In this document: positions 3,151 through 27,993 of the stretch, piece after piece | How the letters are laid out: each line of letters starts with the position of its first letter | Position numbering within the stretch: position 1 is the stretch's first letter | From: Gallionella sp. | Lineage (GTDB): Bacteria; Pseudomonadota; Gammaproteobacteria; Burkholderiales; Gallionellaceae | Assembly (NCBI GenBank): GCA_041739955.1 | Contig: JBGSMU010000062.1 | Coordinates: forward strand, 1 to 47,012 | Direction of reading: 5' to 3' | Length of the DNA stretch: 47,012 nt | Program-made: the position numbers and the translations under genes | The notes under the pieces: model-generated | What the model was told of the DNA's origin: nothing | The model's database searches: none | The model's input: the letters and a program-made list of their open reading frames with translations, nothing else

Positions 3151-3231
3151 CTGGCTAAACTGCCTTTCATCGAGAGACGCATATCTGCGTCGATGAAGAT
3201 CAGCCTACAGAGAGGGCTTGGATGAATAGCG

Positions 3232-4194: not shown

Positions 4195-4216
4195 TTGCTG
4201 TTTTTGATTTGATGCT

Positions 4217-4320
4217 TGCGAATCGTGCGAATGCTGCGAAACTCCATATGCCGTATGGCTTTCCACGTGCGCACACTTATGCGAACCGTGCGAATGAAAT
4301 CAACTTTCGCATGATTCGCA
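4217..4320. repeat. Iteron-like block, copy B (GCGAA at 4218, 4227, 4236, 4281, 4290; inverted at 4305, 4314)
   Basis: Inverted imperfect copy of 1341-1419. Confidence 0.85.
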
Positions 4321-4366
4321 TAGGCATTTTACCTGAGCGAGATTTCAATAGCGGTATGGTGGCGAC

Positions 4367-5087
4367 AAGGGAGTCCAGATTATGGACATCCTTTTGCAAG
4401 TGCAGTCGGGTGCTGTTCCCAAGTTGAACACGACTGACGCAGACTGACGCATCTCCCGGTTAACTTCTCACGTGCGCACGTGTAGGGGTAAATCACTAAC
4501 TGTGTCAGCTGCGTCAGTGACTCATAAAATCATCGGGTTATGAATTGCAATTTCGGCGGAAGGTGTGTCACGTTACGTTACGTCCATGGGGTGGGGAAAC
4601 GGTCTGCGTAGTATGCAGACCCTTGGTGAAAGGGTGTCAGTTCAATTGACATCCTTGGGTGAATAATCGCTGATGACAAGGGTACGGAATTCAGTTCCGC
4701 TCCTTGCAATGGGTGTGAGTTGAACTCACTCCCTCACACGATTCGGTAGGTGCGTTCGCCGCTGGCACTTTTCTCCGACACAACGTTCATGCCGAGTTTC
4801 TTTTTGATTGCGCCTGAGATCGCGCCGCGCACGGTATGTGCCAGCCATCCGGTCGACTGCATGACCTGATTCACCGTGGCACCATTGGGACGTTGGAGCA
4901 TGGTGATTAGCGTTGCTTGTTTTGTGCCTGTGCGGATTGCGGAGGGGGTACCCATAGTACGGGTGCCCTCCAGATTTTGGAGGCCATCAAGGGTACGCAC
5001 ATTCCGCGTACCCTCAAGCTTCCGGCGGTCATCAGGGGCGTCAAAATTTTTGACATCCTCATGGGTGTCGTTATTGCCGACATCCTT
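4367..5087. repeat. Cluster of about ten 27-bp palindromic units, approximate consensus AAGGGTGT-N11-ACATCCTY
   Basis: Units at 4367-4393, 4598-4624, 4630-4656, 4678-4705 (28 nt), 4709-4735, 4944-4970, 4989-5015, 5034-5060 and 5061-5087. Weaker units at 4561-4587 and 4962-4988. Confidence 0.8.
4434..4517. other. Symmetric origin-like element: 2x CTGACGCA, central palindrome, 2x inverted TG(C/T)GTCAG
   Basis: CTGACGCA at 4434 and 4444; perfect 14-bp palindrome CACGTGCGCACGTG at 4469-4482; TGTGTCAG at 4501 and TGCGTCAG at 4510. The structure is seen directly; function is inferred. Confidence 0.55.
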
Positions 5088-5312
5088 CGGCACTGAACGC
5101 TCTCTGCCAACGGCCGCATAGCCAACATCTGTCAGCAGATAATTGTCGTCGTCATGGCTAACGAGTCCCTTGGCCAGCAAGCCATCGATGACAGCGGTGC
5201 GCGCGCCACCGCGTAGTTTACTTGGCAACGGTTCGATGTCGCCGTCGATGCGCTCGGCAGCGGCTTCGAGGACAGTGGTTTGTGTGGCCGTTAGTTTGAG
5301 CTTGGTGGTCAT
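4734..5312 (-). CDS. DUF3489 domain-containing protein (winged-helix-like)
   Basis: C-terminal TKQATLITMLQRPNGATVNQVMQSTGWLAHTVRGAISGAIKKKLG...RTYRI and N-terminal LRGGARTAVIDGLLAKGLV. Confidence 0.85.
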   Translation of the reverse strand: MTTKLKLTATQTTVLEAAAERIDGDIEPLPSKLRGGARTAVIDGLLAKGLVSHDDDNYLLTDVGYAAVGRERSVPKDVGNNDTHEDVKNFDAPDDRRKLEGTRNVRTLDGLQNLEGTRTMGTPSAIRTGTKQATLITMLQRPNGATVNQVMQSTGWLAHTVRGAISGAIKKKLGMNVVSEKSASGERTYRIV

Positions 5313-5337: not shown

Positions 5338-5559
5338 TTAATGTTGTGCGGCGATTTCAGCTTCGTTAGCCTTCGGCATTTGCAGACCCGCTTCGCAGCC
5401 AGCTATGAAGGCGGCGTGTAAGGCTTCCTTGAGTCTCCACACCGCGATGTCGTGGAAATCCAAGCTGTCGCCGTGGCGGGTTTCAAGGGTTTCGATGTCC
5501 ATGTGTTTTTTGGCGATCAGGGTCAGGATGTTGTCGAGGGTGTTGGTGTTGGTGTTCAT
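5338..5559 (-). CDS. DUF6900-like small protein
   Basis: IAKKHMDIETLETRHGDSLDFHDIAVWRLKEALHAAF signature; SD GAGGAG; usual neighbour of DUF3489. Confidence 0.75.
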   Translation of the reverse strand: MNTNTNTLDNILTLIAKKHMDIETLETRHGDSLDFHDIAVWRLKEALHAAFIAGCEAGLQMPKANEAEIAAQH

Positions 5560-5586
5560 TTTTTTGTGCTCCTCAAATTTTGTGGA

Positions 5587-5790
5587 TCAAATCATCTCGT
5601 AACCGGCGCGTTCTAGGCGTTGCGCATCAGCCGGTGTGACTACCCAGTATTCGCCGCTTTCGCCGTCGTTGTCGCCAAGCACCACCCAGTGGGGTTTGAC
5701 GCAGTGGTCGGCGTAGCTGCTGGCCAGCGCTGGGTTGCGGAACACCGCAATGTGCCCTTTGACTAATTTTTTGATCTGTTCGTTTAACAT
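5587..5790 (-). CDS. Small hypothetical protein (67 aa)
   Basis: ATG 5790 (MLNEQIKK) follows GGGAG; first gene of the DUF6900-DUF3489 unit. Confidence 0.65.
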   Translation of the reverse strand: MLNEQIKKLVKGHIAVFRNPALASSYADHCVKPHWVVLGDNDGESGEYWVVTPADAQRLERAGYEMI

Positions 5791-5990
5791 TTTGTTCTCC
5801 CGCGATGTTGTTGATGACGGTGACATGAACGCTCTGTTCGATGTAGAAGGCAAGTTATTAATCGCAATTATTCTCAAATTTGAGCATCGCGGTACCAGCA
5901 AAAAAATAGCAGACTTTTTCTGCTGATTCTCGTTATCTATATACTTCGGTCTATCCAAACTTATCTCGCACTGTGCTACCCTGACGCCCC

Positions 5991-8138
5991 ATGAAATCAG
6001 CCAATGAAGCCTTCTCCCGCGTCATCATCGACAGCCAACTTACAGCACAAAGATGGAGCTTGGTTGACGGTTTCAGCGTTCGTTACGAAGTAGTGTTGGA
6101 AGACGGCACACGCGCAGACTACGTGTTGTGTGATCGGCATGGTCGCTCGTTGGCAGTGGTTGAAGCGAAGCGTTTTTCAGTCAGTCCAGGTGATGCCGCC
6201 GAGCAAGCAAAAAATTACGCCAAGCAACTCAACGTTCCCTACATCTTTCTCGCCAACGGTAACGAGATTCAGTTTTGGGAATGGCAGCGCGAAGCATACC
6301 CGCGCCCCGTTAAAACCTTCTTCAAGCAAGACGACATCGAGCGTCGTTTCGCCACCCTGCAAGTCGCACGCAAACCGTTGTCCGTACCTATTGATGTGAA
6401 GATCGCTGGACGCGACTATCAGCAGGAATGTAACCAGACTCTGTGCGAAGCGATCCAATTAGGCAAACGTAAACTGCTGGTCGAAATGGCGACCGGTACA
6501 GGTAAAACACGCACCGCCGCCGCGCTCATCAAGCGACTGTTTGAAGCGAATGCCGTTACTCGCGTCTTGTTCCTAGTGGATCGCATCCCACTGGCGTTGC
6601 AGACTGAGGATGCCTTTGCCGAGCATCTGCCGGATTACCCGTCGTATGTGTTGCGCGCCGGTCGACGCTTTCAAGATGAGAAGCGCATCACTATCACCAC
6701 GCTGCAAAGCATGATTAACATCTACGGCGAATACTCAGCCGGATATTTTGATCTCATCATCTCGGACGAATGCCACCGCAGCATCTACGGCAAGTGGAGC
6801 GGCGTGCTTAAACATTTTGACGGCATTCAAATCGGCCTCACGGCTACGCCTTGTATCGGTGGCGAGGATGCTGCCACGGGCGATGAAGACGACAAGTTGT
6901 TCGTGAAGGACACTCTCAAATTCTTCGAGGTAGATAAGCCCACCTTCAGCTACAAGCTGAAAGATGCCATCAGCGATGGCTACCTCGTGCCGTACCAGAT
7001 ATACAAAGCCAAGACCGTGAAGACCGCTGCCGAAGGTGGCTTCGAAGTTAAGCGCGACGAACTCGACTGGTCGGCAATGAATGACAAAACCAAGCAGGAA
7101 TTTGAAGCACTGTTCAAAGATTCCAACTCGGTAATGATTGACCCGAACGCACTGGAACGCCGATTCACCATCCCCGAGCGTAACCGTGCCTTGGTGCGTG
7201 AATTCCGTCAGGTGATGGATAACGGCTACATCGATCACAAAGGCATCCAGCGCAAACCGCTACTCGGCAAGACCATCGTGTTTGCTGTGACCAAGCGTCA
7301 TGCCGAAACACTGGCGCAGATGTTTGATGAAGCCTTTGCCGATCAGAAGTCCTCACCCGATGTGCGCTATGCCGACTACGTGGTTTCCGGCATGGGGCCA
7401 GATGACACCGTGGACGCGATGAGCAAGATCAAGCGTTTCAAGAAAGAGAAATTCCCGCAGATATTGGTATCGGTGAACATGCTCGATACCGGTTTCGATT
7501 GCCCGGAAGTCAATAATCTGGTGTTCGCCCGTTTCACCAAATCCGTCATTTTGTATCAGCAGATGCGCGGTCGCGGCACACGCAAAGCGCAGAATAAACC
7601 ACTGTTTACTATGTTCGACTTTGTGGGTGTGGCGGACTATCACGGCGATGATGATGGTTATGCGCAAGGCGGATTTATTGGCGTGAAAACCCCGCCGAAA
7701 AAACCTTACGAACCGCGCCGCCTGTTGTCGCTAGACATCGATGACCATATTGATCCGGCTACCCGCGAATGGGTAACGATTGATGAGGATGGCAATTTTG
7801 TATTTCCTGAAGCATCGGAACAAAAAGCCAACGAAATCGGCGCTAAATTCGAGGCGTGGTTAATCTCACGTATCGACTTCAATCCGGCACAAGAAAATCT
7901 CCTGCGTGTCGTCGGCAGTCAAATACGTGCTAACGCCGAGACATGGGACGAATTCACCAGCGACCATTTCGCGCTACCGATCTTCAGTTCGCAGGGCGGC
8001 TATCAGAATGCGTTACGTGTCTTCGGCGGCAAGGCGCAACTGGATGAAGTGATGGAAAGCCTCAATGCCAACGTATTCCAGTCAGATACAGATTCACGTC
8101 AATCCGATGCGTCGGATCATCACGTCAACATGCAGTAA
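5991..8138 (+). CDS. hsdR: Type I restriction enzyme R subunit (EcoAI/EcoEI-like)
   Basis: Nuclease motif RADYVL...VVEAKR; helicase motifs MATGTGKT, DECH, LTAT, LDTGFD, QMRGRGTR. Confidence 0.95.
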   Translation: MKSANEAFSRVIIDSQLTAQRWSLVDGFSVRYEVVLEDGTRADYVLCDRHGRSLAVVEAKRFSVSPGDAAEQAKNYAKQLNVPYIFLANGNEIQFWEWQREAYPRPVKTFFKQDDIERRFATLQVARKPLSVPIDVKIAGRDYQQECNQTLCEAIQLGKRKLLVEMATGTGKTRTAAALIKRLFEANAVTRVLFLVDRIPLALQTEDAFAEHLPDYPSYVLRAGRRFQDEKRITITTLQSMINIYGEYSAGYFDLIISDECHRSIYGKWSGVLKHFDGIQIGLTATPCIGGEDAATGDEDDKLFVKDTLKFFEVDKPTFSYKLKDAISDGYLVPYQIYKAKTVKTAAEGGFEVKRDELDWSAMNDKTKQEFEALFKDSNSVMIDPNALERRFTIPERNRALVREFRQVMDNGYIDHKGIQRKPLLGKTIVFAVTKRHAETLAQMFDEAFADQKSSPDVRYADYVVSGMGPDDTVDAMSKIKRFKKEKFPQILVSVNMLDTGFDCPEVNNLVFARFTKSVILYQQMRGRGTRKAQNKPLFTMFDFVGVADYHGDDDGYAQGGFIGVKTPPKKPYEPRRLLSLDIDDHIDPATREWVTIDEDGNFVFPEASEQKANEIGAKFEAWLISRIDFNPAQENLLRVVGSQIRANAETWDEFTSDHFALPIFSSQGGYQNALRVFGGKAQLDEVMESLNANVFQSDTDSRQSDASDHHVNMQ

Positions 8139-8165
8139 CTTGCATCACCACAGAAAGTACCTGCA

Positions 8166-9791
8166 ATGCCTTTAACTCCTGAAATGCGCCAGTCCATCGA
8201 GCAGATACGCAACTACCTTTACGGTGGCGGCTACCCTGATCCGATGAGCAATGCCGAACAACTTTCCTTCCTGTTTTTCTTCTACCTCATCGAAGGTATT
8301 GATGCCGAGAACACCATGAAGGCCAAGGTGATGAAGCAGAAATACGAATCTTTGTTCGCTGGGGAATGGACATTGCGCAACCCGCTCAATGCGCCAGAGG
8401 CCAATGCCACGACCATCGACAAATCTCGTTTCAAGTGGTCAGTGTGGGCCAAGGGCTTGAGCGGCGAAGCACTGGTGCGCTTTGTACGCGATGAAGTATT
8501 CCCGTTCTTTGCGGAAGTGGCAGAGCGTTCCGCTTTCAACTTTATGAATGGTGCGCGTCTCACTATTGATGAACCGACCGTATTGAGCCAAGTGGTTAAT
8601 CTGGTGGATGGATTGCACCTCGATCAATCGGATGCCGACACCAAAGGCGACTTGTTCGAGCATGTGTTACGCCAGATTAAACAGGCGGGTGAACTCGGCC
8701 AGTTCCGCACGCCGCGTCACGTCATTCGCGCCATCGTGGACATGCTTGATCCCAAGATTGGCGAAACGATTTATGACCCGGCAGCAGGTACGGCAGGATT
8801 TTTAGCGGCGGCATTCAATCATATTCGCTTAACCAATTCATCACCGAGCGGAATCAGCGAAACCGAAGTCGAAGGCAAGCTGCAAAAGCGTGGCATTGGC
8901 GACAAGCTATCAGCCGCCCAAGTTTCCGTGCTGCAAAACAGCACCTTCTACGGCAATGACGTTGACCCCAAGATGGTGCGCCTCGCCACCATGAACCTCA
9001 CCCTGCGCGGTCTGCCCAATGTGCGTATCCAACTGCGCAATGGCTTGACCACTACACAAGACAACGAACGCAAAGCTGAATTGGGTTTGCCGCTTGAGGG
9101 CTATCACGTTGTGCTGGCGAATCCGCCGTTCTCAGGCCGCGTGGATAAAGACCGCATCGTGGACGAAGTGAAGGTAGGCACCAGCACTTCCACCGAAATC
9201 TTGTTCTTGAAATACATGATGGATTGTTTGCGACCCGGTGGTCGTTGCGGCGTCATCATTCCCGAAGGGGTGCTGTTCGGTTCAACAGGTGCGCACAAGG
9301 AATTGCGTCGTCAGTTGATCGAGAACAACACCGTCGAGGCGGTGATGTCATTGCCGGGTGGCGTGTTCCAGCCGTATTCCGGCGTGAAGACATCCGTTCT
9401 ATTTTTCCGCAAAGGTGGCACGACCGACAAGGTGATGTTCCTGCATGCCGATAACGACGGCTATAAGCTGGATGCCAATCACGATACGTCCATTGAGGCG
9501 GATGATCTACCGATGCTGGCTGATGCCTACCTCACCCGTAAAGAACGCTGGGCGGAATGGTCAGCGCGGGATGCCGCAGCTGAGTGGACGCAACAATGGT
9601 GGTTTGCTGACGCAGCAACTTTGCGCAGTAATGACTTCAATCTTTCTGCGGGACGTTTTCGCCCAATGAGCCAGACAGCGGCAATACATCGCGATCCGCG
9701 TGAGCTACTGGATGAACTGGCGGCGATTGAAACCGAGATTGCCGAGGAAGTGGAAGCATTGCGCACGGTGCTGGTGGAGCAGGCTGCATGA
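8166..9791 (+). CDS. hsdM: Type I R-M N6-adenine methyltransferase M subunit
   Basis: GQFRTPR, DPAAGTAGF (SAM binding), LANPPF (catalytic), IIPEGVLF. Confidence 0.95.
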   Translation: MPLTPEMRQSIEQIRNYLYGGGYPDPMSNAEQLSFLFFFYLIEGIDAENTMKAKVMKQKYESLFAGEWTLRNPLNAPEANATTIDKSRFKWSVWAKGLSGEALVRFVRDEVFPFFAEVAERSAFNFMNGARLTIDEPTVLSQVVNLVDGLHLDQSDADTKGDLFEHVLRQIKQAGELGQFRTPRHVIRAIVDMLDPKIGETIYDPAAGTAGFLAAAFNHIRLTNSSPSGISETEVEGKLQKRGIGDKLSAAQVSVLQNSTFYGNDVDPKMVRLATMNLTLRGLPNVRIQLRNGLTTTQDNERKAELGLPLEGYHVVLANPPFSGRVDKDRIVDEVKVGTSTSTEILFLKYMMDCLRPGGRCGVIIPEGVLFGSTGAHKELRRQLIENNTVEAVMSLPGGVFQPYSGVKTSVLFFRKGGTTDKVMFLHADNDGYKLDANHDTSIEADDLPMLADAYLTRKERWAEWSARDAAAEWTQQWWFADAATLRSNDFNLSAGRFRPMSQTAAIHRDPRELLDELAAIETEIAEEVEALRTVLVEQAA

Positions 9792-10912
9792 GCCAGTGGC
9801 CGACCGCTCCTCTGGGCACAGCCATTGAGTTGGCCTATGGCAAGAGCTTGCCAAAGGGTAGCCGTGTGGAAGGGGGCAGCATCCCTGTCTATGGTTCAAA
9901 TGGAATAACAGGCTGGCACGATGCGGCGGTGGTCGATGGTCCAACAGTGATTGTCGGCCGTAAAGGTAGTGCCGGGGCTGTGCAGTTCGTTGATGGCCCC
10001 TGCTTTCCGATTGATACTACCTACTATGCCTGCCAGCGTCAGGGTTTCGATTTCGACATCAAGTTCCTGTATTACCAGCTTCGACAACTCGACCTCTCTC
10101 GCTTGAAAACCGCAACTGGAGTGCCCGGTCTTACGAGGGAAGACGCTTATAGGGAGACGATTGCAGTTCCACCAATCCACGAACAACAACGCATTGTGGA
10201 CATCCTCGCCCGTGCAGAGGGCATCGTGCGGTTGCGGCGCGATGCAGATAAAAAAGCAGCCGAGTTGATCCCTGCATTATTCCTCGAAATGTTTGGTGAT
10301 CCGGCGACGAATCAGAAGGGATGGCCTGCCGCACCTCTTGGCGACCTGTGCGATGTTAAAGGTGGAGGGACTCCATCCAAGCAAAATCCAGCTTTCTGGA
10401 TTGGAGAAATTCCGTGGGTTTCACCAAAGGATATGAGTGGTGTTGAAGTTATTAAAGATGCGGAAGACCACATTTCTGTAGATGCGGTGAAAAGCAGTGC
10501 AACAAACTTGATCCCGGTGGATTCGGTTTTAATCGTTACCCGAAGCGGGGTACTCAAGCACACAATCCCTTGTGCAATTACGTCGAGAGTGGTTGCCATC
10601 AATCAGGACATAAAAGCTTTTGTGCCGCGCAAGGAAATTGCGCCGCATTTCCTTTTGTCTCAACTCCAAATTCGCGCGAAGGAAATTCTTGGTTTGGTTC
10701 GTGTTGGTGCGACTGTTCAGAACATTGAAACGGAAGCTCTGAAGCGCATGCGTTTCATTTATCCTAGCTTGGATGTGCAAGTTAAGTTTAGCGAGAAGTG
10801 TGAGCAAATTCGCTCCATCCAATCTCAACAATCCACGGCTACCACGATGGCTCAAGCAACTTTCGACGCGTTACTGTCTCAGGTGTTTGCTAAAACAAAA
10901 AATATGGGCTAG
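9788..10912 (+). CDS. hsdS: Type I R-M specificity subunit
   Basis: Two TRDs with conserved regions (PPIHEQQRIV, LFLEMFGDP, YPSLDVQ..F); ATGA overlap with hsdM. Confidence 0.95.
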   Translation: MSQWPTAPLGTAIELAYGKSLPKGSRVEGGSIPVYGSNGITGWHDAAVVDGPTVIVGRKGSAGAVQFVDGPCFPIDTTYYACQRQGFDFDIKFLYYQLRQLDLSRLKTATGVPGLTREDAYRETIAVPPIHEQQRIVDILARAEGIVRLRRDADKKAAELIPALFLEMFGDPATNQKGWPAAPLGDLCDVKGGGTPSKQNPAFWIGEIPWVSPKDMSGVEVIKDAEDHISVDAVKSSATNLIPVDSVLIVTRSGVLKHTIPCAITSRVVAINQDIKAFVPRKEIAPHFLLSQLQIRAKEILGLVRVGATVQNIETEALKRMRFIYPSLDVQVKFSEKCEQIRSIQSQQSTATTMAQATFDALLSQVFAKTKNMG

Positions 10913-10939
10913 TTTGCTCTAATAACCGGGGAGGGATTT

Positions 10940-11440
10940 ATGTGTTGGTTCAGCAGAAAAGAAAAGAGCAAACCTACGTTTGCCGTTCCCGAATGGGCAG
11001 TATCCCATCCAGCTTGGGTTCGTCTTGAGGATCAAATTGGTTGGTATGACAACAAAAGCGTCCATTGCCAGAACTGGTACAAGCGACTTAAGTTTGTTCA
11101 GATCAGTCTTGCCGTGCTGATTCCAGTATTCAGTCAACTTGATCCAGTATGTGCAAAATGGGTTGTTTCGATTGCCGGGGTGACGATTGCGATACTGGAG
11201 GGTATGCAGCATTTGAATCAATATTCGACGTTATGGTTTACTTATCGCGCCACCGCAGAGCGACTGAAACATGAGAAATATCTCTTCCTTTCCGCTGCGG
11301 GTCCGTACAAGGGGCAAGTTGATCAAGAACGCCTTGTCGCCCTTGCCGAACGGGTTGAGGAACATGTTTCAACTGAGCATGCAAACTGGTTCAATGAAAC
11401 TAGGCGTGCTGTTTCTATACAGAAGCAAGAGGGGAAGTAA
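10940..11440 (+). CDS. SLATT-family (DUF4231) two-transmembrane protein, candidate defence effector
   Basis: RLEDQIGWYDNKS, two hydrophobic helices, and W.TYRATAERLKHEKYLF signature; SD GGGAGGG. Confidence 0.85.
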   Translation: MCWFSRKEKSKPTFAVPEWAVSHPAWVRLEDQIGWYDNKSVHCQNWYKRLKFVQISLAVLIPVFSQLDPVCAKWVVSIAGVTIAILEGMQHLNQYSTLWFTYRATAERLKHEKYLFLSAAGPYKGQVDQERLVALAERVEEHVSTEHANWFNETRRAVSIQKQEGK

Positions 11441-12423
11441 TGGCAATAGCCAGACCTAAGGAAATTGACATCGGCACGGTCCGTTTGCCAACGCCAATAT
11501 TCTTTCCATCCATTTCAACCATCAAGACAGCACTATCGCCAGCGCAATATCTTGCAGCACTGCATTCTCTACGTGATTTAAATAAGCAGTTTCTGGTGTC
11601 AGCGTTTGATTTAAGTCGTTCAGGCGATGGTGATGGACTGGCGCAATGTTTAATTGCAGCCCAAGCAGCGGGTGTGACGGTGCTGATGGATTCCGGTAAC
11701 TACGAAAGCTATTGGAAAGATGAGCAGTCGGATTGGAGACAGGCAGATTTTCATGATGTACTGAAACGATTCTCCTGCTCTTTCGCTTTCGGTTTCGATG
11801 AGCAGAATCCACCGGCGGATGAAGATACTCATGTAAAACTGGTCGTCGAACGTTGGCAGCGTGATCAGAGCGCAGCCGGGAAACGAGTAATCGTGCCAAT
11901 CGTGCATGGAACAGCTGAGACCCTACCAAATTTGTGCGCACGTATCGCGCAAGAAACACAGGTGCCGATGATTGCAGTAGCTGAACGACGGCTTGGTGAT
12001 GGTGTGTTCGAGCGTACCCGGTCGGTGATATCTCTACGAGAGAAACTTGATGGCACTGGGCGCTACGTCGGTTTGCATCTTTTAGGGACGGGTAATCCAA
12101 CCTCGATTGCGCTCTACTCATGGGCAGGGGCAGATAGTTTCGATGGACTGGAATGGTGTCAGACAGCAGTCGACCATGATACTGGCCAGTTGTTTCACCT
12201 TTCACAATCAGATTTTTTTCGCAAGCAAACCGCATGGGGCGATGAAGACATCTCATTTCATTCCCGCACCTTGGCGCACAATTTGACATTTTACGCGGAC
12301 TGGATGCAACGCTTACGCCAAGCTGTTTATGACGATAACGTGATAAATTTCTGCCGCTTAAACTTCTCGCCGCGTATATTTCGCCAATGCGCAGTAGCAT
12401 TTAAATGGGAGGTAGCCGAATGA
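11440..12423 (+). CDS. tRNA-guanine transglycosylase (TGT)-fold protein, Cap10-like
   Basis: LPTPIFFP, VLMDSGNY, PIVHG, HLLGTGNP, GADSFDG, LAHNL motifs; no CxCxxC zinc site; TAATG overlap with SLATT. Confidence 0.85.
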   Translation: MAIARPKEIDIGTVRLPTPIFFPSISTIKTALSPAQYLAALHSLRDLNKQFLVSAFDLSRSGDGDGLAQCLIAAQAAGVTVLMDSGNYESYWKDEQSDWRQADFHDVLKRFSCSFAFGFDEQNPPADEDTHVKLVVERWQRDQSAAGKRVIVPIVHGTAETLPNLCARIAQETQVPMIAVAERRLGDGVFERTRSVISLREKLDGTGRYVGLHLLGTGNPTSIALYSWAGADSFDGLEWCQTAVDHDTGQLFHLSQSDFFRKQTAWGDEDISFHSRTLAHNLTFYADWMQRLRQAVYDDNVINFCRLNFSPRIFRQCAVAFKWEVAE

Positions 12424-13121
12424 ATATGACCGCTGTTGATCGGACGATTCGTGTGTTGTGTGCCGATGTTAAAAGCAGTGCTCAAAAGGTGTTGGACTGG
12501 CAATTGCACACAGAGGAAGAATTGCTACACGAGGCTTGCGTCTGCATGTTCAGTAGCCAAATGGTGTTTGAGGTTGCAGAGGCAGCAGCGCAGCGAATCA
12601 AGGATCGTGGGTTGCTTAAGGCTACGACATCAAAGGATTATGAACAACGCCTTGTGGCGGTCTTGGGCGAGCCGCTCGATTTTGAGCGGGACGGCAAAAT
12701 ACGGCATGCTCGTCCCCGCTTTAAAAATCGCTTGGCATCTCTGCTTTCTACCACAGTAAAAACGATGCGTATTCAGGGACAGTCTCTGCGGGATACCTTG
12801 TTTTCAGCCAGTTCGGCACGAGAGGCCAGAGAGCTTTTGGTTCAGCAGGTGTGGGGGTTTGGCCCAAAGCAAGCAAGCCTTTTTCTACGTCGAGTGGGCT
12901 ATTGTGCCGAGCTGGCTGTGTTAGATACACACATCCTGGATTACCTTCGCGTTGCTCGTGGCCTTGACCCAAAACCTAGCGCATTGTCGCGGCTAGAGAG
13001 CTATGAGCGTATCGAAGTTGAATTTCAAAAGGTCGCAGAGGAATTTGGCCACTCTGTCGGTTGTGTTGACCTAGCAATGTGGGTAACGATGCGCGTCGCG
13101 AAACGGGAGGCGATTTGGTGA
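12420..13121 (+). CDS. HhH N-glycosylase/DNA lyase (8-oxoguanine glycosylase OGG-like), Cap11-like
   Basis: ARELLVQQVWGFGPKQASLFLRRVG (HhH with catalytic Lys), LAVLDTHIL (catalytic Asp), C-terminal DLAMW; ATGA overlap and SD GGGAGG. Confidence 0.85.
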   Translation: MNMTAVDRTIRVLCADVKSSAQKVLDWQLHTEEELLHEACVCMFSSQMVFEVAEAAAQRIKDRGLLKATTSKDYEQRLVAVLGEPLDFERDGKIRHARPRFKNRLASLLSTTVKTMRIQGQSLRDTLFSASSAREARELLVQQVWGFGPKQASLFLRRVGYCAELAVLDTHILDYLRVARGLDPKPSALSRLESYERIEVEFQKVAEEFGHSVGCVDLAMWVTMRVAKREAIW

Positions 13122-13711
13122 GTCTGGTTAATTTGGTATCCGGCGGGCTAGATTCGACTTTGGTCGGCGTGATGGCCAGAGAAGAAGGTTTGACCGTGCA
13201 TCCGCTGTTCATTGATTACGGACAACGTGCCAGCCAGAAGGAGTGGGATACCTGCCAGCGTGTGCATTCGCAGTTGGGCTTGCCTGCCCCGACCCGAATG
13301 GATTTATCTGGATTTGGCAAGGTGATTCATTCTGGTCTGACATCTGTTGAGATGGATGTGAAAGCGGAAGCCTTTACGCCAGGTCGCAATCTGATGTTCT
13401 TGTTGATGGGTAGCGCCTATGCCTATCAGGTGGGCGCGTCCTCGGTATCGGTCGGGTTACTTGCTGAACGGTTTAGCTTGTTCCCAGATCAGCAGCCAGA
13501 ATTTATTAAACAGGCAGAACGCGCAATCGAAGCGGCGCTAGGCCGTCGAATCAAGGTTGTGACGCCGCTTGCTGAATTCAGTAAAGCTGACGTCGTCTTG
13601 CTGGCTCAGAAGAAATGGATAACGGGAACGTACTCTTGCCATATGGGGGGCAGTGAGCCTTGCGGAAAGTGCATTTCATGTCTTGAATTTGATCTTGGTG
13701 ACGGAGGATAA
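13118..13711 (+). CDS. QueC-like (7-cyano-7-deazaguanine synthase family) PP-loop ATPase, Cap9-like
   Basis: SGGLDS PP-loop, IDYGQR, PGRNLMFL, FPD, and zinc motif TYSCHMGGSEPCGKCISC. GTG start at 13118 (GTGA overlap) follows GGGAGG. Confidence 0.92.
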   Translation: MSLVNLVSGGLDSTLVGVMAREEGLTVHPLFIDYGQRASQKEWDTCQRVHSQLGLPAPTRMDLSGFGKVIHSGLTSVEMDVKAEAFTPGRNLMFLLMGSAYAYQVGASSVSVGLLAERFSLFPDQQPEFIKQAERAIEAALGRRIKVVTPLAEFSKADVVLLAQKKWITGTYSCHMGGSEPCGKCISCLEFDLGDGG

Positions 13712-13712
13712 A

Positions 13713-14213
13713 ATGGGCGGTGGATCTGGTGGTGGTATTCCAAGTGCTGACTGGGCGAGGCTTGAAGCCAAGGCAAAACAAACGCTCACAGAATCAACAA
13801 CCGATACGAGCCGACACGTATTCATCAGTTTTGCCTATGAGGATGTTGACGAGGTCAATCTGCTTCGCGGACAAGCAAAAAATGACAAAACTGATTTGCA
13901 GTTCGACGATTTTTCAGTCAAGGAAGCCTATGACAGTGAGAATGCAGACTATATCAAACGACAAATCAGGGATCGCATAGACCGTTGTTCAGTTACCGTC
14001 GTTTACCTCACAGACAATACTGCGTCGAGTAGTTGGGCGAATTGGGAAATCGAGGAAAGTCTAAAGCGCGGCAAGGGTGTGATTGGAGTCTATAAAGGTG
14101 ATAGCCAACCTGCAAAGACACCGCCAGCATTTCAGCAGAATAATTGTAAGGCAGTGAAGTGGGAGCACGCCGCTCTAATGAACGCAATTAATGATGCAAA
14201 TGCAAATCGATAA
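13713..14213 (+). CDS. TIR-domain protein (ThsB/DUF1863-like) with N-terminal Gly-rich extension
   Basis: ATG 13713 follows GGAGG, 1 nt after the QueC stop. MGGGSGGG N-terminus; RHVFISF, CSVTVVYL and SSWANWEIEES (catalytic Glu) motifs. Confidence 0.9.
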   Translation: MGGGSGGGIPSADWARLEAKAKQTLTESTTDTSRHVFISFAYEDVDEVNLLRGQAKNDKTDLQFDDFSVKEAYDSENADYIKRQIRDRIDRCSVTVVYLTDNTASSSWANWEIEESLKRGKGVIGVYKGDSQPAKTPPAFQQNNCKAVKWEHAALMNAINDANANR

Positions 14214-14232
14214 CGCTAGATAACCTAGCCTC

Positions 14233-15210
14233 ATGCCAGTTTATCTGCCCACTTATTTCTCTGCTCGCTCTGCCAAAGAAGCTATAACTGCTTGTTGGCA
14301 GATTTGTTCTACAGATGGCGTAGTTGACGTTGATGCTAGTCAGTTGATTTTTGCTGATCCGTTCGGAATGACTCTGCTGGCAGCCACATTTCATAAAGTT
14401 CGCGAACAGAATGGTGTCGTTCGTGTGCATCATCTCAACGGACAATTGAGCTGCTATTTGCAGCGCATGGATGTCTTTCAAGGTGTTGAGTTGGTTGACT
14501 GTGCTCCGACGCAAGGACAGCGGCATGATCGCGCTGATGCATTGATGGAGGTAACTCGACTTGAACGACAGGCTGATATTGGTAACGCAGCTCACCGCCT
14601 TACTACTGCATTAGTCGGGAAAATGCCCGTGGCGAATCGCGATGAGTTGCCAGATGAAATGTCTGGTTACACAGAGTCAGATCGCTTGGCCGAACCTATT
14701 CAGTACGCTCTGAATGAACTTTTGGAAAACGCGCTAACCCATGCTCGGCGTGCGTGATACATAAATGCCTGTGTGTGGTTGTCCAGTCAATACTATCCAT
14801 CGAATGGTTTGATTCGCGTGGGCGTGGTTGATAACGGTTGCGGCTTTTTGGCCACCTTGCGAGGTCATGCGGCATTACATCAGGAGACTCATTTAGCCGC
14901 CATTCTTGCTGCATTGCAACCACGCGTAAGTTGTAATCGTGATTTAGGATTGCGCTCGGATTCGGTCAATCAGGGGGTAGGTCTTACCACTACCCGCAGA
15001 ATTGCAGAAACTGCCGGGGGGCGTTTATATATTGCGAGTGGCGATGCAATTCACAGTGCTGCTTCATCTAGCCATTTGGCTGGCGGCGCATGTTGGCAAG
15101 GTGTCGCAATTGCATTGGAGTGCAAACGAAAAAAATTGCCCGAAGTTCACTATCGCGATCTACTGCCGCCAATAGATGCAAAACCTACAGTCAAGTTGCG
15201 CTTTCAATGA
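14233..15210 (+). pseudogene. STAS-like plus HATPase_c (GHKL/anti-sigma-kinase-like) protein interrupted by one in-frame TGA at 14755-14757
   Basis: ORFs 14233-14757 and 14773-15210 share a frame. The N-box ELLENALTHA precedes the stop; G1 VVDNGCGF and G2 NQGVGL follow it. Confidence 0.8.
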
Positions 15211-15269
15211 AATGCAGTTATCTTGTCAAGGCTGGCCTGCTACATCTATATGAGGTTAGTCAAAAAATT

Positions 15270-15581
15270 ATGAATACCCAAATACTTTTGAATCAACATG
15301 CACACGGCCACTTGGTCGGTTCGCGCTTGGCTGCAGCCCCGCTTCGCGAGGATTTGGAAGTGGCATTGGCGCAGCAAGGTGCGGAAGTCGTTCTGGACTT
15401 TTCAGGCATTACAGCCACTCAATCTTTTGTAGATGAGTTAGTCGGTGTGCTTGTCTTGCGCCATGGGCCGGATGTGTTGGCACGAATTATTTTCAAAGGT
15501 TGTTCGGACGATGTGCGTGCAATCATCGAGTTTGTTGCTGCCGACCGTTGCGATCAGTATCTCAAAGCACACTCGCACTAG
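15270..15581 (+). CDS. STAS-like DUF4325 family protein
   Basis: GSRLAAAPLR...VVLDFSGITATQSFVDELVG signature; usual partner of such HATPases. ATG 15270 preferred over 15090. Confidence 0.8.
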   Translation: MNTQILLNQHAHGHLVGSRLAAAPLREDLEVALAQQGAEVVLDFSGITATQSFVDELVGVLVLRHGPDVLARIIFKGCSDDVRAIIEFVAADRCDQYLKAHSH

Positions 15582-15753
15582 CCGCATTTTAATCTGCCTG
15601 ACTGAGAACATGAGTCGGTCATCGGTTCAATTCCAGATAGAGCAATTGAACCGAAGCCCACTTAAACTATCACGCGCTATTAATCACCCGCACACGCACT
15701 CATTGGCCATAACAGAAAGTTTTTCGGTGTAAAATTCACACCACCATAAAAAC

Positions 15754-15783
15754 AAAAAGCCTTGCATCTCAGCAAGGCTTTTT
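15754..15783. terminator. Bidirectional intrinsic terminator
   Basis: AAAAAGCCTTGC-ATCTCA-GCAAGGCTTTTT between convergent transcription units. Confidence 0.85.
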
Positions 15784-15809
15784 TGTAGTTCATATTTAAT
15801 ATCTTGTAG

Positions 15810-16607
15810 TCAGGGCAATTTACCTGCCACCACCATGCGGTTAAGCAGGATGTTAGGTGAAAGCCAGACAACAAGGTCATCAAAGCCGCTTTCTGAAAGA
15901 TCGTGGCTCACGAACTTGTCGTCGTTATCGCTATTTTCAGCTTCATCTGCGTTCGACGAGGTGGCTAGTACGCTACCGCTACTTAAATAAGCTCCATATC
16001 CGTTTTTCCCATGTGAGACAACAACCAAGGGGACATCGGTGGCTACGTTGTTTCCTCCCACTGCGGCAGTAAGTACATCGGGAATGCCGGGGGAGCACAA
16101 TGCAAAACTGGAATAGATAGGATTAGTGGTTGGGGTGCATCCATAATTGGCGGCAGCAATCTGGTCTGCAAAGCGAATTGCGACCCTGTAGGTAAAGCGA
16201 TGATCCCATGCGTCGCCTTCATTGATTCCCAGTGTTGCCCAAGGTAACACGCCGGCAACAGTTGTGTCGGTACAGGCAACCTTGGATGCACTCATGTCGG
16301 CTATGGTCTTGCCACTTCCCGAACTTGTTTTGCATGCGCAGGTAGTTCCGGTAACCGCCTCGATACCGGCATTACTGTCCGTGCCGGTTACCAGATCGGA
16401 TTGTGCAGGGCATGGAAGACGTCCGTTTACTATCGCGTATCCAATCAGCGATTGCTGGATCTCGTCCATCTGTTTTCGGGTCTCATTGATGTGCTGGGAT
16501 TCCATTTGGGCAGACAATGTTGGCACCAATGCACCAAGCAATATCCCGATGATCATCAGGACAATCGCCATCTCCAGCAGAGTGAAACCGAATTGTGTGT
16601 TTTTCAT
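15810..16607 (-). CDS. Prepilin-type N-terminal cleavage/methylation protein (minor pilin/pseudopilin)
   Basis: MKNTQFG|FTLLEMAIVLMIIG class III signal peptide. Confidence 0.9.
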   Translation of the reverse strand: MKNTQFGFTLLEMAIVLMIIGILLGALVPTLSAQMESQHINETRKQMDEIQQSLIGYAIVNGRLPCPAQSDLVTGTDSNAGIEAVTGTTCACKTSSGSGKTIADMSASKVACTDTTVAGVLPWATLGINEGDAWDHRFTYRVAIRFADQIAAANYGCTPTTNPIYSSFALCSPGIPDVLTAAVGGNNVATDVPLVVVSHGKNGYGAYLSSGSVLATSSNADEAENSDNDDKFVSHDLSESGFDDLVVWLSPNILLNRMVVAGKLP

Positions 16608-18037
16608 TAACATGCCGTCACAGTGAAATCAGGTTTGATGCAGTAAAGTACATCGTTGAAACTACCACTTTCCGCTCCGCTTTGGTAGTTGCTGTTGCCA
16701 CCAAGATTTTGATTATTCACATTATCATAGCGGTTCACATTTGCAAAGTTGAGTCCCTCCAAGTAGTTTCTGAGGTCAAGATGGTCACTGGTTGAAGCGC
16801 GGGACTGACCGGCCAGAGGGCGTCCCGCAAACATCACGACTGCTGCATATTGGCCGCTGCTGTTTACCCTTAAACAGGTTGAGCAAAAGCTGAGAGATGC
16901 GCTTCCAGGTTTGAAATGATCCGCCAAGGCGTAATACAAATGATCCTTCCAGTTCGACCACCAAGGGTAATAGCTAGACCAGTCTGTGACATTGGGACAG
17001 TTGTTGCCATTGCTTGCCAATTGATACCATGGCGTGTCAATCAAGTTGTCGCCGACTGGACTGGTTGGGTATAAAGTCTTATAGGAGCTATTGACTCTGA
17101 AAGGAAGGCGGCCAGCCATTCTGCCATTCTCATCGTCATATTTGGCATCCGTTATGTAATTAGTCGAGGGGGACAATAGTCTTCCGGCCCAAGGAAGTCG
17201 ACGAATACTCGAAATGCCTCTCGAACCAAAATTGGCGATACATTCCGCAGCTTTCTTTGTCATCAGGCGCAGCGGGTTCCGTGCCGGATCAATATTGTAG
17301 ATAGCATCAAAGATGTCGTCTTTAGTGATATAGATCATCTGGTCATTGACCTGTGCAGATGATGCCATCCGGAATTGTGTGATAGCGTTGGCACTTGCAG
17401 AAACAGTTCCGTTATTGAGAACGCCGTCCGAGTCGAGGTAGTTGGTGGCGGTATAGTTTCCTCCACAGACCGGCGCTTTGTTGTCCGGTGTACGGTTCTG
17501 ACTGCCAAGTACCGCCCCGGGAGAGAATATGACTGCCACTACATTTTGTGCGATGGTCGTCCCGCTGGCATCGAGTATTTCGAACAGGCCCGGATTATCC
17601 GAATTCATCAGATTGTTGGTCATGGGGTTGTTTTTGTATGTCCCGGCAACCGCATACCACAGGCATTCCCCGTTTCCGTCGCGCAATGCGGGTAACTGCA
17701 GTGTCTTCCATGGTAGCCTGCCGATACTGCTGACATTCTGGTTGCCGCAGGTTTCTGAAGATCCCTCGCCATTAGCACCGACAGTACCATTGGGATCCGG
17801 GCAAGGCAGGTAGCCGTGAACTTGTAAAGAATGAGTATCGCCATAAGTGATGGCGAAACCAATAAGCGCGGACTTTGCCAGAGCCAGGGAAACCGCCGTT
17901 GATTCATGCTGTTTGGTCAGGAGTGCCGTGGAGCTAAGTGAGCCTACCAAAAAAGTAGAAACGCCAAGCACCATGATCACCAGCATCACCATCAATGCGG
18001 CACCGCGTTGCTTTATATGGCCGAACTTTCTTTCCAT
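16607..18037 (-). CDS. PilX/GspK-like pilin-associated protein
   Basis: KQRG|AALMVMLVIMVL N-terminus; shares LPCP and LPWxTL motifs with the adjacent pilin. Confidence 0.75.
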   Translation of the reverse strand: MERKFGHIKQRGAALMVMLVIMVLGVSTFLVGSLSSTALLTKQHESTAVSLALAKSALIGFAITYGDTHSLQVHGYLPCPDPNGTVGANGEGSSETCGNQNVSSIGRLPWKTLQLPALRDGNGECLWYAVAGTYKNNPMTNNLMNSDNPGLFEILDASGTTIAQNVVAVIFSPGAVLGSQNRTPDNKAPVCGGNYTATNYLDSDGVLNNGTVSASANAITQFRMASSAQVNDQMIYITKDDIFDAIYNIDPARNPLRLMTKKAAECIANFGSRGISSIRRLPWAGRLLSPSTNYITDAKYDDENGRMAGRLPFRVNSSYKTLYPTSPVGDNLIDTPWYQLASNGNNCPNVTDWSSYYPWWSNWKDHLYYALADHFKPGSASLSFCSTCLRVNSSGQYAAVVMFAGRPLAGQSRASTSDHLDLRNYLEGLNFANVNRYDNVNNQNLGGNSNYQSGAESGSFNDVLYCIKPDFTVTAC

Positions 18038-18049
18038 CGGGTGTATCTG

Positions 18050-18400
18050 CTAATCCGGGTCAGCAGGGGTGGACAGCACTTTCTGCCCGACTTTCATTTT
18101 GACGGATTTGGATTTCCCCGGAACAGTAACGCGCTCGCTTGCCGGGGAGAGTTCGTCGCTAGGACCAACATCTTCCGCGACACCGTTGATCCAAACAGTT
18201 CGCTTGCCACCGTGTTTTTGCACGATGCCATTTAAGACCACCCCGTTATGAATGGTTTCGGGATGTTGTCCTTGCAGGTAATCGTAATCAAGATGTGCAC
18301 GTTGTTCGGGTGGGAAAAAAAGGCGGCCCAACTCTTCAGCCTGCAAGGGCAGCGAAATCAATGCGATTGTTAGAAGGAGGAGTCTGTGAGTTGAACTCAT
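18050..18400 (-). CDS. Exported pilus/T2SS accessory protein
   Basis: Signal peptide, LGRLFF and LNGIV...VWING motifs, operon position. Confidence 0.7.
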   Translation of the reverse strand: MSSTHRLLLLTIALISLPLQAEELGRLFFPPEQRAHLDYDYLQGQHPETIHNGVVLNGIVQKHGGKRTVWINGVAEDVGPSDELSPASERVTVPGKSKSVKMKVGQKVLSTPADPD

Positions 18401-19032
18401 GGCTGTGAATTCCTGTTCTTAAGGGTGATCCATCCACCTTTGCATTCCCCTTTGAGGTTCACTCTTGATTCAAGGGTATGGTTTACGTCTTCTTCACTGT
18501 TATCAACATTTGTGTCTGCACGGTGCATTGCGCAATTTTCGAGTTGAAAATGCCCTTTGACCTGCTTCTGTAATTCATTTAAAAACCTCAAAAGTTGTCC
18601 TTCATGCAGAAGATCAAACTGCAATCGCATTTCACTATAGTGGATCTCATAACTTCCACTGTCTATCGCGGGTTGGGGAATATAGGAGATTTGCGGGGAA
18701 ATGCTGTAGTTGAAATCAATCACAATATTTTGTTGGCGAAGCTTGTCCAGGCCTTCCATCCAGTCCAGTCTGTGATCGTCGCCGATAATTTTGTCTTCTT
18801 CAAGGATAGTGTAGTCGGAGAAATATGCCGCAAGGGTTTCTTTGTCCTGAAGAGCTGTACTCAAGCTATTACGAGCATCATTTATTTGTTTCTGAGCCAA
18901 GCGGGATTCATTTTGCGCATGCTCTGCAAACTGATCGCTGAGATAGAAAATGAAGATACTCAATACCACGGAAATCGCAAGAACTGTAACGTTCCAGCGG
19001 ATGAGTCGGAAGTCGGTATTGGAGAACTTCAT
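18397..19032 (-). CDS. PilO/GspM-like alignment protein
   Basis: One N-terminal TM plus coiled coil, then M.LQFDLLHEG; ATGA overlaps. Confidence 0.65.
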   Translation of the reverse strand: MKFSNTDFRLIRWNVTVLAISVVLSIFIFYLSDQFAEHAQNESRLAQKQINDARNSLSTALQDKETLAAYFSDYTILEEDKIIGDDHRLDWMEGLDKLRQQNIVIDFNYSISPQISYIPQPAIDSGSYEIHYSEMRLQFDLLHEGQLLRFLNELQKQVKGHFQLENCAMHRADTNVDNSEEDVNHTLESRVNLKGECKGGWITLKNRNSQP

Positions 19033-20522
19033 ATTGATGGCCTCCAAACCAGTTTCAAAGAAAAGCCGAATATATTTTCCTGATCGCCTCGCTGATCGGC
19101 AAGACTGCCGCTTGGACTGACATCAAGTGGTTTTGCCAGAATTTCTACCTGGTAAGTATGCTTGCTCAGTTCCAATTGGAGACGGTCAAGATACTTGAGC
19201 GCGGAACGATAGTTTCCCGCGAATCCTGTCAGGTTGCCCTTGAGTGTAATGACGTGTGCTGGAACGTCAGATTGCGTATTGCTGGCAACTGGTTCTGTAA
19301 CGCTCGTTTGCAGGTTGATTTCGTCCAGCCGTGCCTGCGGAAAATGGTCGAGCACAAGACTGACAGGTGATAAAAGGTCTTGGGGTGACAAACGGTAAAG
19401 TTCTAGTTTGCGTATGATATTTACGCCGGCTTTCATGTCTGTTGGAGCAACCGTCGAAGCAGGCAGTGTTTGCCGGATCATATCGGCTTCTTTAAGGGTG
19501 CGTTGCGCTTGCAGCTTGAGGGATTCAATCCCTGCTTCATTTCCACTGCCTTGCCAAACCGGCACTATCGACAATAGCAGGGAGGCAATAAACAGTAAGA
19601 TCGCGCTCCACTTCAGGGCGATGTTAAACGTTCGGAGCGAATAGTAGTGTGTATGCTCCGCATTGGCGTAGTGAGTCTTGGGGCGACTTGCCGCCAATTG
19701 ATGCAGGAATATCTGGCTTGCGTCGGAATCGGTGAATCGATAATCGATTTTCAGTTGCCTGCCGACTTCTTCGATGTCGGCAAAGTCGTAATGCATATCC
19801 TCGTTGCCAAATAGCTGATTTTTCAGCTCGTCACGGTCATCGGCATGGCACAGAATGCGCACATCAAGTGTCTGCCCGGCGGGAAGCAAGCTAAGACTTT
19901 TCAGATATTGATAAGTGCGCGCGAGCTCCTTTAATACGGCCTCGTTAAAAGTCTGGTCTTCGTGAACCGGCGTCAGTCTGGAAATTTGCAGACGATGGTC
20001 ACTGAAGTAGGTCTGGCGCAATCCCGAGAATTTTTCCCAGGAGATAAGTAACAAATGTTTGGACGGATGATTCTTGACCAGAGGTGCGCTGATCTGTGGA
20101 ACAGAATAAATCCCCGCAAGAGGGATTTCCTGAACGAGCAGGATATTCAGCCACGGCATGATAAGTGTAGGATTTGTAAGTGCCGAAAACAGCATGTCGT
20201 CATCGCGACGACCTGATTTTTGACGCTGCAGCAAGGTTGCCTGGTGAAACGGAGTTCCCCTGTAGAACTGGTCAAATTTGCGTTTTAACAATGCCTTGTG
20301 ACTATTGCCAATCAGATGCGGGACGATCTCATGCCTGAAATCTTCCTCGATCAGGTCTGTCAGCAGGTAAGTCGGGTATTTGTTTGTCTTGAGGAAGTCT
20401 GTAAAGTTGTCGCGTTCACGTTGGTTATCGGTAAAGTCGCGTTGCGATACTATCTTGCCGCCAGACATGATCTGTGCATGCAGGCGGTTTGCGCTCAAAA
20501 AAAGTAGTAGTGATCGTTTCAT
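19029..20522 (-). CDS. PilM/PilN (GspL)-like fused alignment protein
   Basis: Large cytoplasmic domain, single TM near residue 305, periplasmic domain; operon position. Confidence 0.65.
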   Translation of the reverse strand: MKRSLLLFLSANRLHAQIMSGGKIVSQRDFTDNQRERDNFTDFLKTNKYPTYLLTDLIEEDFRHEIVPHLIGNSHKALLKRKFDQFYRGTPFHQATLLQRQKSGRRDDDMLFSALTNPTLIMPWLNILLVQEIPLAGIYSVPQISAPLVKNHPSKHLLLISWEKFSGLRQTYFSDHRLQISRLTPVHEDQTFNEAVLKELARTYQYLKSLSLLPAGQTLDVRILCHADDRDELKNQLFGNEDMHYDFADIEEVGRQLKIDYRFTDSDASQIFLHQLAASRPKTHYANAEHTHYYSLRTFNIALKWSAILLFIASLLLSIVPVWQGSGNEAGIESLKLQAQRTLKEADMIRQTLPASTVAPTDMKAGVNIIRKLELYRLSPQDLLSPVSLVLDHFPQARLDEINLQTSVTEPVASNTQSDVPAHVITLKGNLTGFAGNYRSALKYLDRLQLELSKHTYQVEILAKPLDVSPSGSLADQRGDQENIFGFSLKLVWRPSI

Positions 20523-21724: not shown

Positions 21725-21725
21725 A

Positions 21726-23459: not shown

Positions 23460-23466
23460 CTTGAGT

Positions 23467-24564: not shown

Positions 24565-24575
24565 GCTGGAACTCC

Positions 24576-27986: not shown

Positions 27987-27993
27987 GCCTATC

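Follow-up and report, generated by a model that had tools for sequence, protein, structure and literature searches.

An operon of Gallionella sp. that combines type IV CBASS helper families with a glycine-tailed TIR enzyme and a SLATT protein, predicted to act as a type VII-like Thoeris system

The DNA analyzed here, called the window, is a stretch of 47,012 nt from Gallionella sp. (assembly GCA_041739955.1, contig JBGSMU010000062.1, positions 1 to 47,012, forward strand). At positions 10940-14213 (+) it carries an operon of five genes, encoding a SLATT membrane protein, homologs of the helper proteins Cap10, Cap11 and Cap9 of type IV CBASS (an antiphage signaling system that uses cyclic oligonucleotides), and a TIR enzyme of the ThsB type. 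The cluster is real, intact and widespread. We judge it probable that it forms an anti-phage system resembling type VII Thoeris, whose TIR enzyme would be licensed through deazaguanylation by the QueC-like (Cap9-like) protein and whose output would run by way of cyclic ADP-ribose (cADPR) and the SLATT protein.

The five open reading frames (ORFs) are intact and translationally coupled, with the junctions TAATG, ATGA, GTGA and a 1-nt gap, in order, and with a Shine-Dalgarno sequence of GGAG/GAGG type upstream of each start (Table 1). This confirms the arrangement given in an original prediction made for this DNA, and the family assignments proposed there (SLATT, TGT, OGG, QueC and ThsB-like TIR) are borne out by Pfam, PADLOC and NCBIfam. 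The first protein matches DUF4231 (PF14015, 3e-23), SLATT_1 (PF18181, 1e-11) and NCBIfam SLATT_1 (NF033634, 5e-34, above cutoff), and has two hydrophobic stretches that are only moderately hydrophobic (19-residue Kyte-Doolittle maxima of 1.54 and 1.65). The second matches the Pfam model for tRNA-guanine transglycosylase (TGT, 1e-6); PDLC00913 (4e-24) is its sole PADLOC match at E<=0.01, and its best sequence match in PDB is the Cap10 structure 9NTN. The third, a helix-hairpin-helix (HhH) glycosylase of the 8-oxoguanine glycosylase (OGG) type, matches PF22175 (Ogg-HhH, 1e-23) and aligns with the archaeal/thermophile OGG structures 3FHF and 3KNT. Its D169 is found in 73 of 73 sequences and its K150 in at least 90%, and we take both to be catalytic, Lys150 being aligned to a residue that is Gln in 3KNT. 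The fourth, QueC-like protein matches PF06508 (1e-41) and PDLC00911 (5e-26), and contains the motifs SGGLDS, GRN and FPDQ plus four zinc cysteines. The fifth matches ThsB_TIR (PF08937, 3e-22) and aligns to the ThsB structures 8FZ9, 6LHY and 9B7D; its Glu112 (WxxWE), aligned with the Glu at the ThsB catalytic position, is kept in 75 of 77 TIR proteins. We read PDLC00913 and PDLC00911 as the PADLOC models for type IV CBASS, a reading supported by the CBASS loci that they retrieve. The PADLOC 2023 models cover only three of the five genes; none exists for the OGG or SLATT protein, and the latter has no match in that collection.

No CD-NTase (a nucleotidyltransferase of the cGAS/DncV type) was found with these genes. 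The SMODS model and tblastn with three CD-NTases returned no match in the host genome (completeness 98.9%), and a 120-sequence CD-NTase profile returned none in the ORFs of 79 related loci and of window positions 5440-18423, which agrees with the original prediction, where no nucleotidyltransferase ORF was recognized in or beside the operon. Because it has no CD-NTase, the operon is not a member of type IV CBASS.

To collect the related loci, an alignment of 28 among 120 listed homologs led to 137 relatives in GTDB genomes, and the best 80 of the 137 gave 79 loci, named as Pseudomonadota, Planctomycetota, Bacteroidota, Latescibacterota, Nitrospirota, Bacillota and others. Because this is a selection of the best 80 among 137 and contains several near-copies, fractions of the 79 describe this lineage and not independent events. 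Gene content was scored with profiles built from the window's own proteins, and gene order is the order among profile matches; locus L076, in which a long ORF contains X, likely from assembly errors, was counted by hand. The conserved five-gene order that the original prediction proposed to look for is found: all five genes occur together in 59 of the 79 loci, more often than by chance, and 47 keep the same order as the window. The series Cap10-(Cap11)-Cap9-TIR occurs in 76 loci, 71 with Cap11 and 5 without it, the other three being cut by contig ends. A Cap11-like gene is present in 74 of the 79, and its absence from five fits the dispensability of Cap11 in CBASS. Besides the usual tailed TIR, several loci (L075, L079, L081/L092, L089, L093, L094 and L108) have a further TIR domain (TIR_2), which forms an N-terminal fusion with the TGT-like protein.

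Abundance was estimated with PDLC00913 at E<=1e-12 in even draws from three phyla, with 400 genomes in each draw (1,200 in total). The model matched 3, 5 and 2 genomes, the center genome excluded. Five of the ten matches are TIR-linked, with a tailed TIR, and five are CD-NTase-linked, small numbers from a profile that favors CBASS; they suggest that the TIR form is not a rarity but was as frequent in these draws as the CD-NTase-linked form. All three matches in the draw from the host phylum have the TIR_2-TGT fusion. Among plasmid records 17 matched, and the four that were opened comprise one of TIR type (Agrobacterium) and three CBASS. No relatives were found in IMG/VR or among 50,697 phage records.

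The key feature of the TIR enzyme went unmentioned in the original prediction. The window TIR begins MGGGSGGG, resembling the glycine tail of type IV CBASS cyclases, on which Cap9 carries out deazaguanylation. In that system, according to the accessible part of a preprint, Cap9 joins 7-carboxy-7-deazaguanine (CDG) to Gly2 in the M(G/S)G(G/S)GG tail of a CD-NTase, and defense needs the tail, Cap9 and Cap10 but not Cap11 (Wassarman et al. 2025, bioRxiv 10.1101/2025.04.06.647259). By likeness to that motif, and from its conservation, the tail of the TIR protein is predicted to be an acceptor for deazaguanylation. The TIR proteins encoded directly after a QueC-like gene number 77, from 76 loci and the window. 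An automatic rule gives 72 of them an M[GS]G start; once three starts (L015, L049 and L053) are corrected by eye, the number with MGG is 75, and the remaining two start with MGN and MAG. The tail occurs in 0 of 26 other TIR proteins of the same loci, and M[GS]G[GS] near the start in 17 of 3560 ORFs of the genome. The tailed TIR proteins (75 tested) form 55 clusters at 90% identity. The helix that follows the tail resembles that of some CD-NTases (IPS..L..LE). A profile test of whether the whole tail plus first helix might have been grafted from a CD-NTase gave a weak result, in that 21% of 102 CD-NTase segments scored beyond the 95th percentile obtained with shuffled sequences. A second ThsB-like TIR is encoded elsewhere in the host genome (G000:C196:2999-3244, 1.6e-8).

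The helper proteins keep most of the residues that matter in their CBASS counterparts. Base-reading and catalytic positions D73, S74, H226 and D248 of Cap10 correspond to D84, S85, H213 and D235 of the TGT-like protein. Across the residue set D73/S74/D122/K154 plus H226/D248, the protein keeps D84, S85, D120, H213 and D235 and differs at the Lys position, where His156 appears to sit at the place of Cap10 Lys154, a Lys in CBASS copies. D84, D120, H213 and D235 are kept in 80 of 80 sequences, S85 and H156 in 79 of 80. In an alignment to the Cap9 structure 9NTO, S18/D22/S23/R86/Y115/D117 of Cap9 correspond to S8/D12/S13/R90/F122/D124 of the QueC-like protein. These six residues, together with Q125 and the four cysteines, are kept in 77 of 77 sequences, as is the Cap9 feature set of SxGxDS, RN, aromatic-x-Asp and zinc cysteines; Gln replaces the Cys of Cap9 YPDC, also in 77 of 77, giving FPDQ.

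The original prediction took it as a test whether the TGT and QueC proteins group with Cap proteins or with housekeeping enzymes, and the answer is divided. In sequence the TGT-like protein is clearly nearer CBASS Cap10 than the host Tgt: against six CBASS copies it scores 123-164 (23-33% local identity), against the host Tgt 44, and it shares with CBASS Cap10 His213 and an E182-x-x-LG stretch that are absent from the host Tgt. The QueC-like protein is as near to QueC as to CBASS Cap9, at 39% identity to the host QueC and 27-34% to six CBASS Cap9 proteins. One QueC and one Tgt served as outgroups across the trees. In the QueC-like tree, 19 TIR-linked copies group together (97/97), apart from the six CBASS copies, which have a branch of their own; in the Cap10 tree the TIR group appears as two changes because the host Tgt, with a branch length of 9.4, cannot be placed. 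The TIR-linked QueC-like and TGT-like helpers thus appear by sequence comparison to be a lineage of their own, and because that lineage is far from the CBASS copies the operon is not a recent hybrid; the word hybrid in the original prediction overstated a recent swap.

An alternative is that the QueC/TGT/OGG trio modifies DNA or RNA with 7-deazaguanine, in a Dpd-like or tRNA-directed manner, while TIR and SLATT make up a separate, adjoining type VII Thoeris system. The QueC-like protein does score higher with canonical QueC than with 9NTO Cap9 (100 versus 75 bits), the fold of the TGT-like protein matches Tgt as well as Cap10, and type I restriction-modification (R-M) genes are frequent neighbors. 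Yet none of the five proteins matches, at E<=0.01, a PADLOC model for Dpd-type 7-deazaguanine DNA modification, whether for the DpdA transglycosylase or for its dpd partners. The trio separates SLATT from TIR and precedes the TIR gene in 76 of 79 loci, the glycine tail is found only on that TIR, several loci have a TGT-like protein with a fused TIR domain, and the host has its own QueC and Tgt. We regard this alternative as very improbable.

A different possibility accepts the link between helpers and TIR enzyme and alters the chemistry or the signal: the helpers might attach another base, or hold the TIR protein without transferring it, or the signal might be something other than canonical cADPR. 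The lineage-specific features FPDQ (77 of 77) and His156 (79 of 80) favor it, as does the identity of about 23-34% to CBASS copies, and the available part of a study of QatC indicates that QueC-family defense enzymes may bind other substrates (PMC13279940). On the other side, the deazaguanine-reading aromatic residue and Asp of Cap9 and the Asp, Ser and Asp of Cap10 are all kept, and E. coli QueC with Tyr changed to Phe at the equivalent site is reported to have stayed partly active (PMC13082051, seen in part). The host encodes, on other contigs, FolE2, a gene of the PTPS/QueD family, queC with a radical-SAM gene beside it that we read as queE, and tgt; because it carries the FolE2, QueD-family and queE-queC genes, the CDG substrate is plausibly available. 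On balance we think a departure of this kind unlikely, and continue to favor deazaguanylation of the TIR tail with a cADPR output.

The case for cADPR comes from the effectors. SLATT is present in 64 of the 79 loci, as a single domain or as a SLATT_3-SLATT_1 pair. Eight of the 15 loci that lack it have a TPR-S (tetratricopeptide-repeat) protein, seven with a DNPH1/Rcl-like N-terminus; these seven seem, by sequence, to fit the description of ThsI, a CMP-hydrolase plus TPR protein, as far as that description is available. A preprint, in its accessible part, reports that ThsH, a SLATT protein, and ThsI both respond to canonical cADPR (bioRxiv 10.64898/2025.12.03.692087). For that reason cADPR is our best guess for the signal, and the ThsI-like proteins of SLATT-less loci hint at the same molecule. 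In SLATT-less loci with TPR-S, two of the genes lie on the opposite strand. The DNPH1 plus TPR-S proteins are encoded at L062:8692-9948, L065:7405-8787 and L089:1889-3151 and in L067, L077, L080, L081 and L034; a profile of them gives a strong match (2e-22) to human ASK1/MAP3K5, in its regulatory region. Loci L060 and L078 were dropped as TPR-S loci, their profile match being only by way of a nucleoside-deoxyribosyltransferase-like stretch. Other candidate effectors have genes adjacent to that of the tailed TIR (L058:9326-10819, L037:8863-10749, L038:2991-4922 and L034:8808-11852): an alpha/beta-hydrolase with TPR-S, large TIR_2 proteins, one of them beside a gene for a radical SAM protein, and a long TPR protein.

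The variability of the effector also bears on whether one is needed. The tagged TIR protein could itself kill, through Cap10-driven assembly and depletion of nicotinamide adenine dinucleotide (NAD), with SLATT a second or independent effector. What varies is indeed SLATT, which 15 of 79 loci lack and which shifts in position and form while Cap10-Cap9-TIR stays fixed, and the same preprint, as far as available, warns that some putative Thoeris TIR proteins may be NAD-depleting effectors (bioRxiv 10.64898/2025.12.03.692087). Here, however, SLATT is translationally coupled to the TGT-like gene, and the order of the window is kept in 47 of 79 loci; the proteins that replace SLATT are known Thoeris-type effectors, the TIR is of ThsB type, and contig ends truncate at least 5 of the 15 loci that lack SLATT. 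Killing by the TIR protein itself strikes us as improbable.

The operon is predicted to work like type IV CBASS at priming and like type VII Thoeris at output, and each step beyond the gene anatomy is carried over from these two model systems. From type IV CBASS, Met would be removed from the start of the TIR protein, the Cap9-like enzyme would ligate host CDG, a 7-deazaguanine base, to Gly2 in an ATP-dependent reaction, and the tagged TIR would be handed to, or held by, the Cap10-like protein. On infection the latter would license the TIR, possibly by transfer of the base-linked TIR via Asp235 onto some target, with the OGG-like (Cap11) protein as a dispensable brake. From type VII Thoeris, the activated TIR would make an NAD-derived signal, probably cADPR, and a SLATT oligomer would open in the membrane and arrest or kill the cell. 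The logic of the original prediction, in which deazaguanine chemistry controls a TIR signal maker that activates SLATT, may hold on this scheme, being consistent with all tests run.

Several observations weigh against this scheme. Defense, conjugation and signal are all predicted from sequence alone. With Ser at position 5, the window tail MGGGSG departs from the strict motif as published, M(G/S)G(G/S)GG, and matches it at five of six positions; the strict motif is found in 26 of 77 TIR tails versus 68 of 120 CD-NTase homologs, whose genomic context was not checked. The likeness of the helix after the tail to helix 1 of CD-NTases is marginal (hhalign probability 21%, E 0.001). A fold search with the predicted model of the TGT-like protein, a TGT fold at a pLDDT (predicted local distance difference test) of 94.6, does not separate Cap10 from Tgt (template modeling scores of 0.65-0.66 and 0.62-0.71). 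At about 23-34% identity, the TIR-linked helpers stand far from those CBASS proteins that have been tested, and they differ at base-contact positions (FPDQ for YxDC, His156 for Lys); for both reasons the base attached could differ from that of CBASS. The DNPH1 similarity of the ThsI-like proteins is weak (E 0.003). Many loci with a ThsI-like protein or a double SLATT also hold a second, untailed TIR, which could be the one feeding the effector.

Comparison with described systems places the operon between two of them. With type IV CBASS the operon shares the three helper families, whose active-site residues are kept, and a signaling enzyme with a glycine-rich start. It differs from type IV CBASS in having no CD-NTase and in the order Cap10-Cap11-Cap9-TIR, as opposed to Cap9-Cap10-CD-NTase in 8 of 8 CBASS loci opened; its helpers, about 23-34% identical, form a separate branch, and Cap11 occurs in 74 of 79 loci here but in about one third of type IV CBASS according to the portion of the source available. 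TIR plus SLATT is reported in the Thoeris preprint as validated type VII Thoeris, consisting of ThsB and the effector ThsH, with canonical cADPR (bioRxiv 10.64898/2025.12.03.692087), and that system has been used as a cADPR reporter (10.64898/2026.04.20.719644, also seen in part). Like type VII Thoeris, the window operon pairs a SLATT membrane protein with a TIR of ThsB type whose catalytic position holds Glu; it differs in the three helper genes between SLATT and TIR and in the glycine tail. QatABCD likewise directs a QueC-family enzyme at the N-terminal glycine of a partner (QatB, N-terminal MGTS), as the accessible part of the report has it (PMC13279940); QatC, however, is much longer and weakly similar (PADLOC 0.0075, NCBIfam far below cutoff), and QatABCD has no TGT, TIR or SLATT.

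The combination has been noted before. Yirmiya et al. 2025 describe Thoeris operons with cap9, cap10 and cap11 (Fig. 6G, S10B), from sequence and AlphaFold 3 (AF3) models, in which ThsB has an interface score (ipTM) of 0.79 with Cap10 and 0.62 with Cap9 (bioRxiv 10.64898/2025.12.03.692087). These operons are like ours in having TIR plus an effector with cap9/10/11 and no CD-NTase, with the TIR a predicted Cap9/Cap10 client; the account, in the part of the preprint available, comprises two sentences and the AF3 model, with neither counts nor a tail motif and no experiment on these operons. Table S1 or Fig. 6G of that preprint may hold this exact effector arrangement. The original prediction had presented the operon as a candidate new anti-phage system while allowing for earlier mention, and that caveat applies. 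The accessible part of a paper on the QueC family makes no mention of TIR (PMC13082051). A literature search, to which subscription journals were mostly out of reach, found no bench test of the TIR form, and nothing on the combinations QueC+TGT+SLATT+TIR or QueC+SMODS+SLATT. What is new here is the separate TIR-linked helper lineage with its FPDQ signature, the abundance of five versus five in the draws, and the ThsI-like proteins in 7 of 15 SLATT-less loci.

Table 1. Features of the operon and its upstream neighbor, with window positions.
Feature	Positions	Strand	Length and basis
Type I R-M hsdR-hsdM-hsdS, frequent neighbor, not a core part	5991-10912	+	directly upstream
SLATT (DUF4231/SLATT_1) two-helix membrane protein, predicted effector, ThsH-like	10940-11440	+	166 aa; PF14015, PF18181, NF033634
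Cap10-like TGT-fold protein	11440-12423	+	327 aa; PDLC00913, Pfam TGT, PDB 9NTN
Cap11-like OGG2-family HhH glycosylase, accessory	12420-13121	+	233 aa; PF22175
Cap9-like short QueC-family ATP-dependent ligase	13118-13711	+	197 aa, GTG start; PF06508, PDLC00911
ThsB-type TIR enzyme	13713-14213	+	166 aa; PF08937
TIR N-terminal tail MGGGSGGG, Gly2 the predicted deazaguanylation acceptor	13713-13736	+	tail conservation, likeness to CD-NTase motif

The operon lies in an island directly after a type I R-M system, as originally predicted: 27 nt separate the R-M system from the start of SLATT, GC content is 49.4% in the operon and 53.7% in the genome, and the TGT-like gene was not found in the 40 relatives searched, 24 of them of the same genus, a patchiness as expected for an island gene. 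In 26 of the 79 loci, mostly those of the closest relatives, an hsdM-like gene is found at a distance of up to about 6 kb, which suggests that the cassette may travel with type I R-M; an hsdR-like gene is found in 15 of 79. Promoter and terminator scans gave no more than shuffled sequence, and the window has no tRNA. Upstream of the R-M genes, window positions 876-5312 (-) hold genes with DUF3987 and DUF3489 and ORFs of no assigned family, which we take to be part of an integrated mobile element. Downstream genes at 14233-15581 were rejected as operon parts, being present in 0 of 79 loci. They consist of a frame for STAS plus a histidine-kinase-like ATPase (14233-15210, +), broken by a single in-frame TGA at 14755-14757 and likely a pseudogene or a sequence error, and a DUF4325 STAS-like gene (15207-15581, +). 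Positions 15810-29391 (-) hold a type IV pilus/MSHA-like cluster (prepilin, T2SSF, T2SSE, secretin, AAA) with a sigma-54 response regulator, which we read as ordinary host genes at the island boundary.

Because the layout is already in a preprint, the value of the operon lies in being an intact, testable example rather than a discovery. The accessible part of the type IV CBASS preprint states that the Cap10 target for the tagged enzyme, and how signaling is switched on, are unknown (bioRxiv 10.1101/2025.04.06.647259). A version built around an unrelated enzyme reveals the generic parts (tail, Cap9 and Cap10) and brings an independent read-out in cADPR and SLATT toxicity. As a tentative and rather doubtful extension, deazaguanylation might be a portable activation module, as common with TIR proteins as with cGAS-like cyclases, in which an old TIR-specific Cap9/Cap10 lineage uses a base on the first glycine of a cADPR-making TIR to tether it covalently to a nucleic acid or nucleotide specific to infection, and the altered pocket (FPDQ, His156) may use another base. 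Were this true, a compact operon with a cADPR read-out would expose the target of Cap10.

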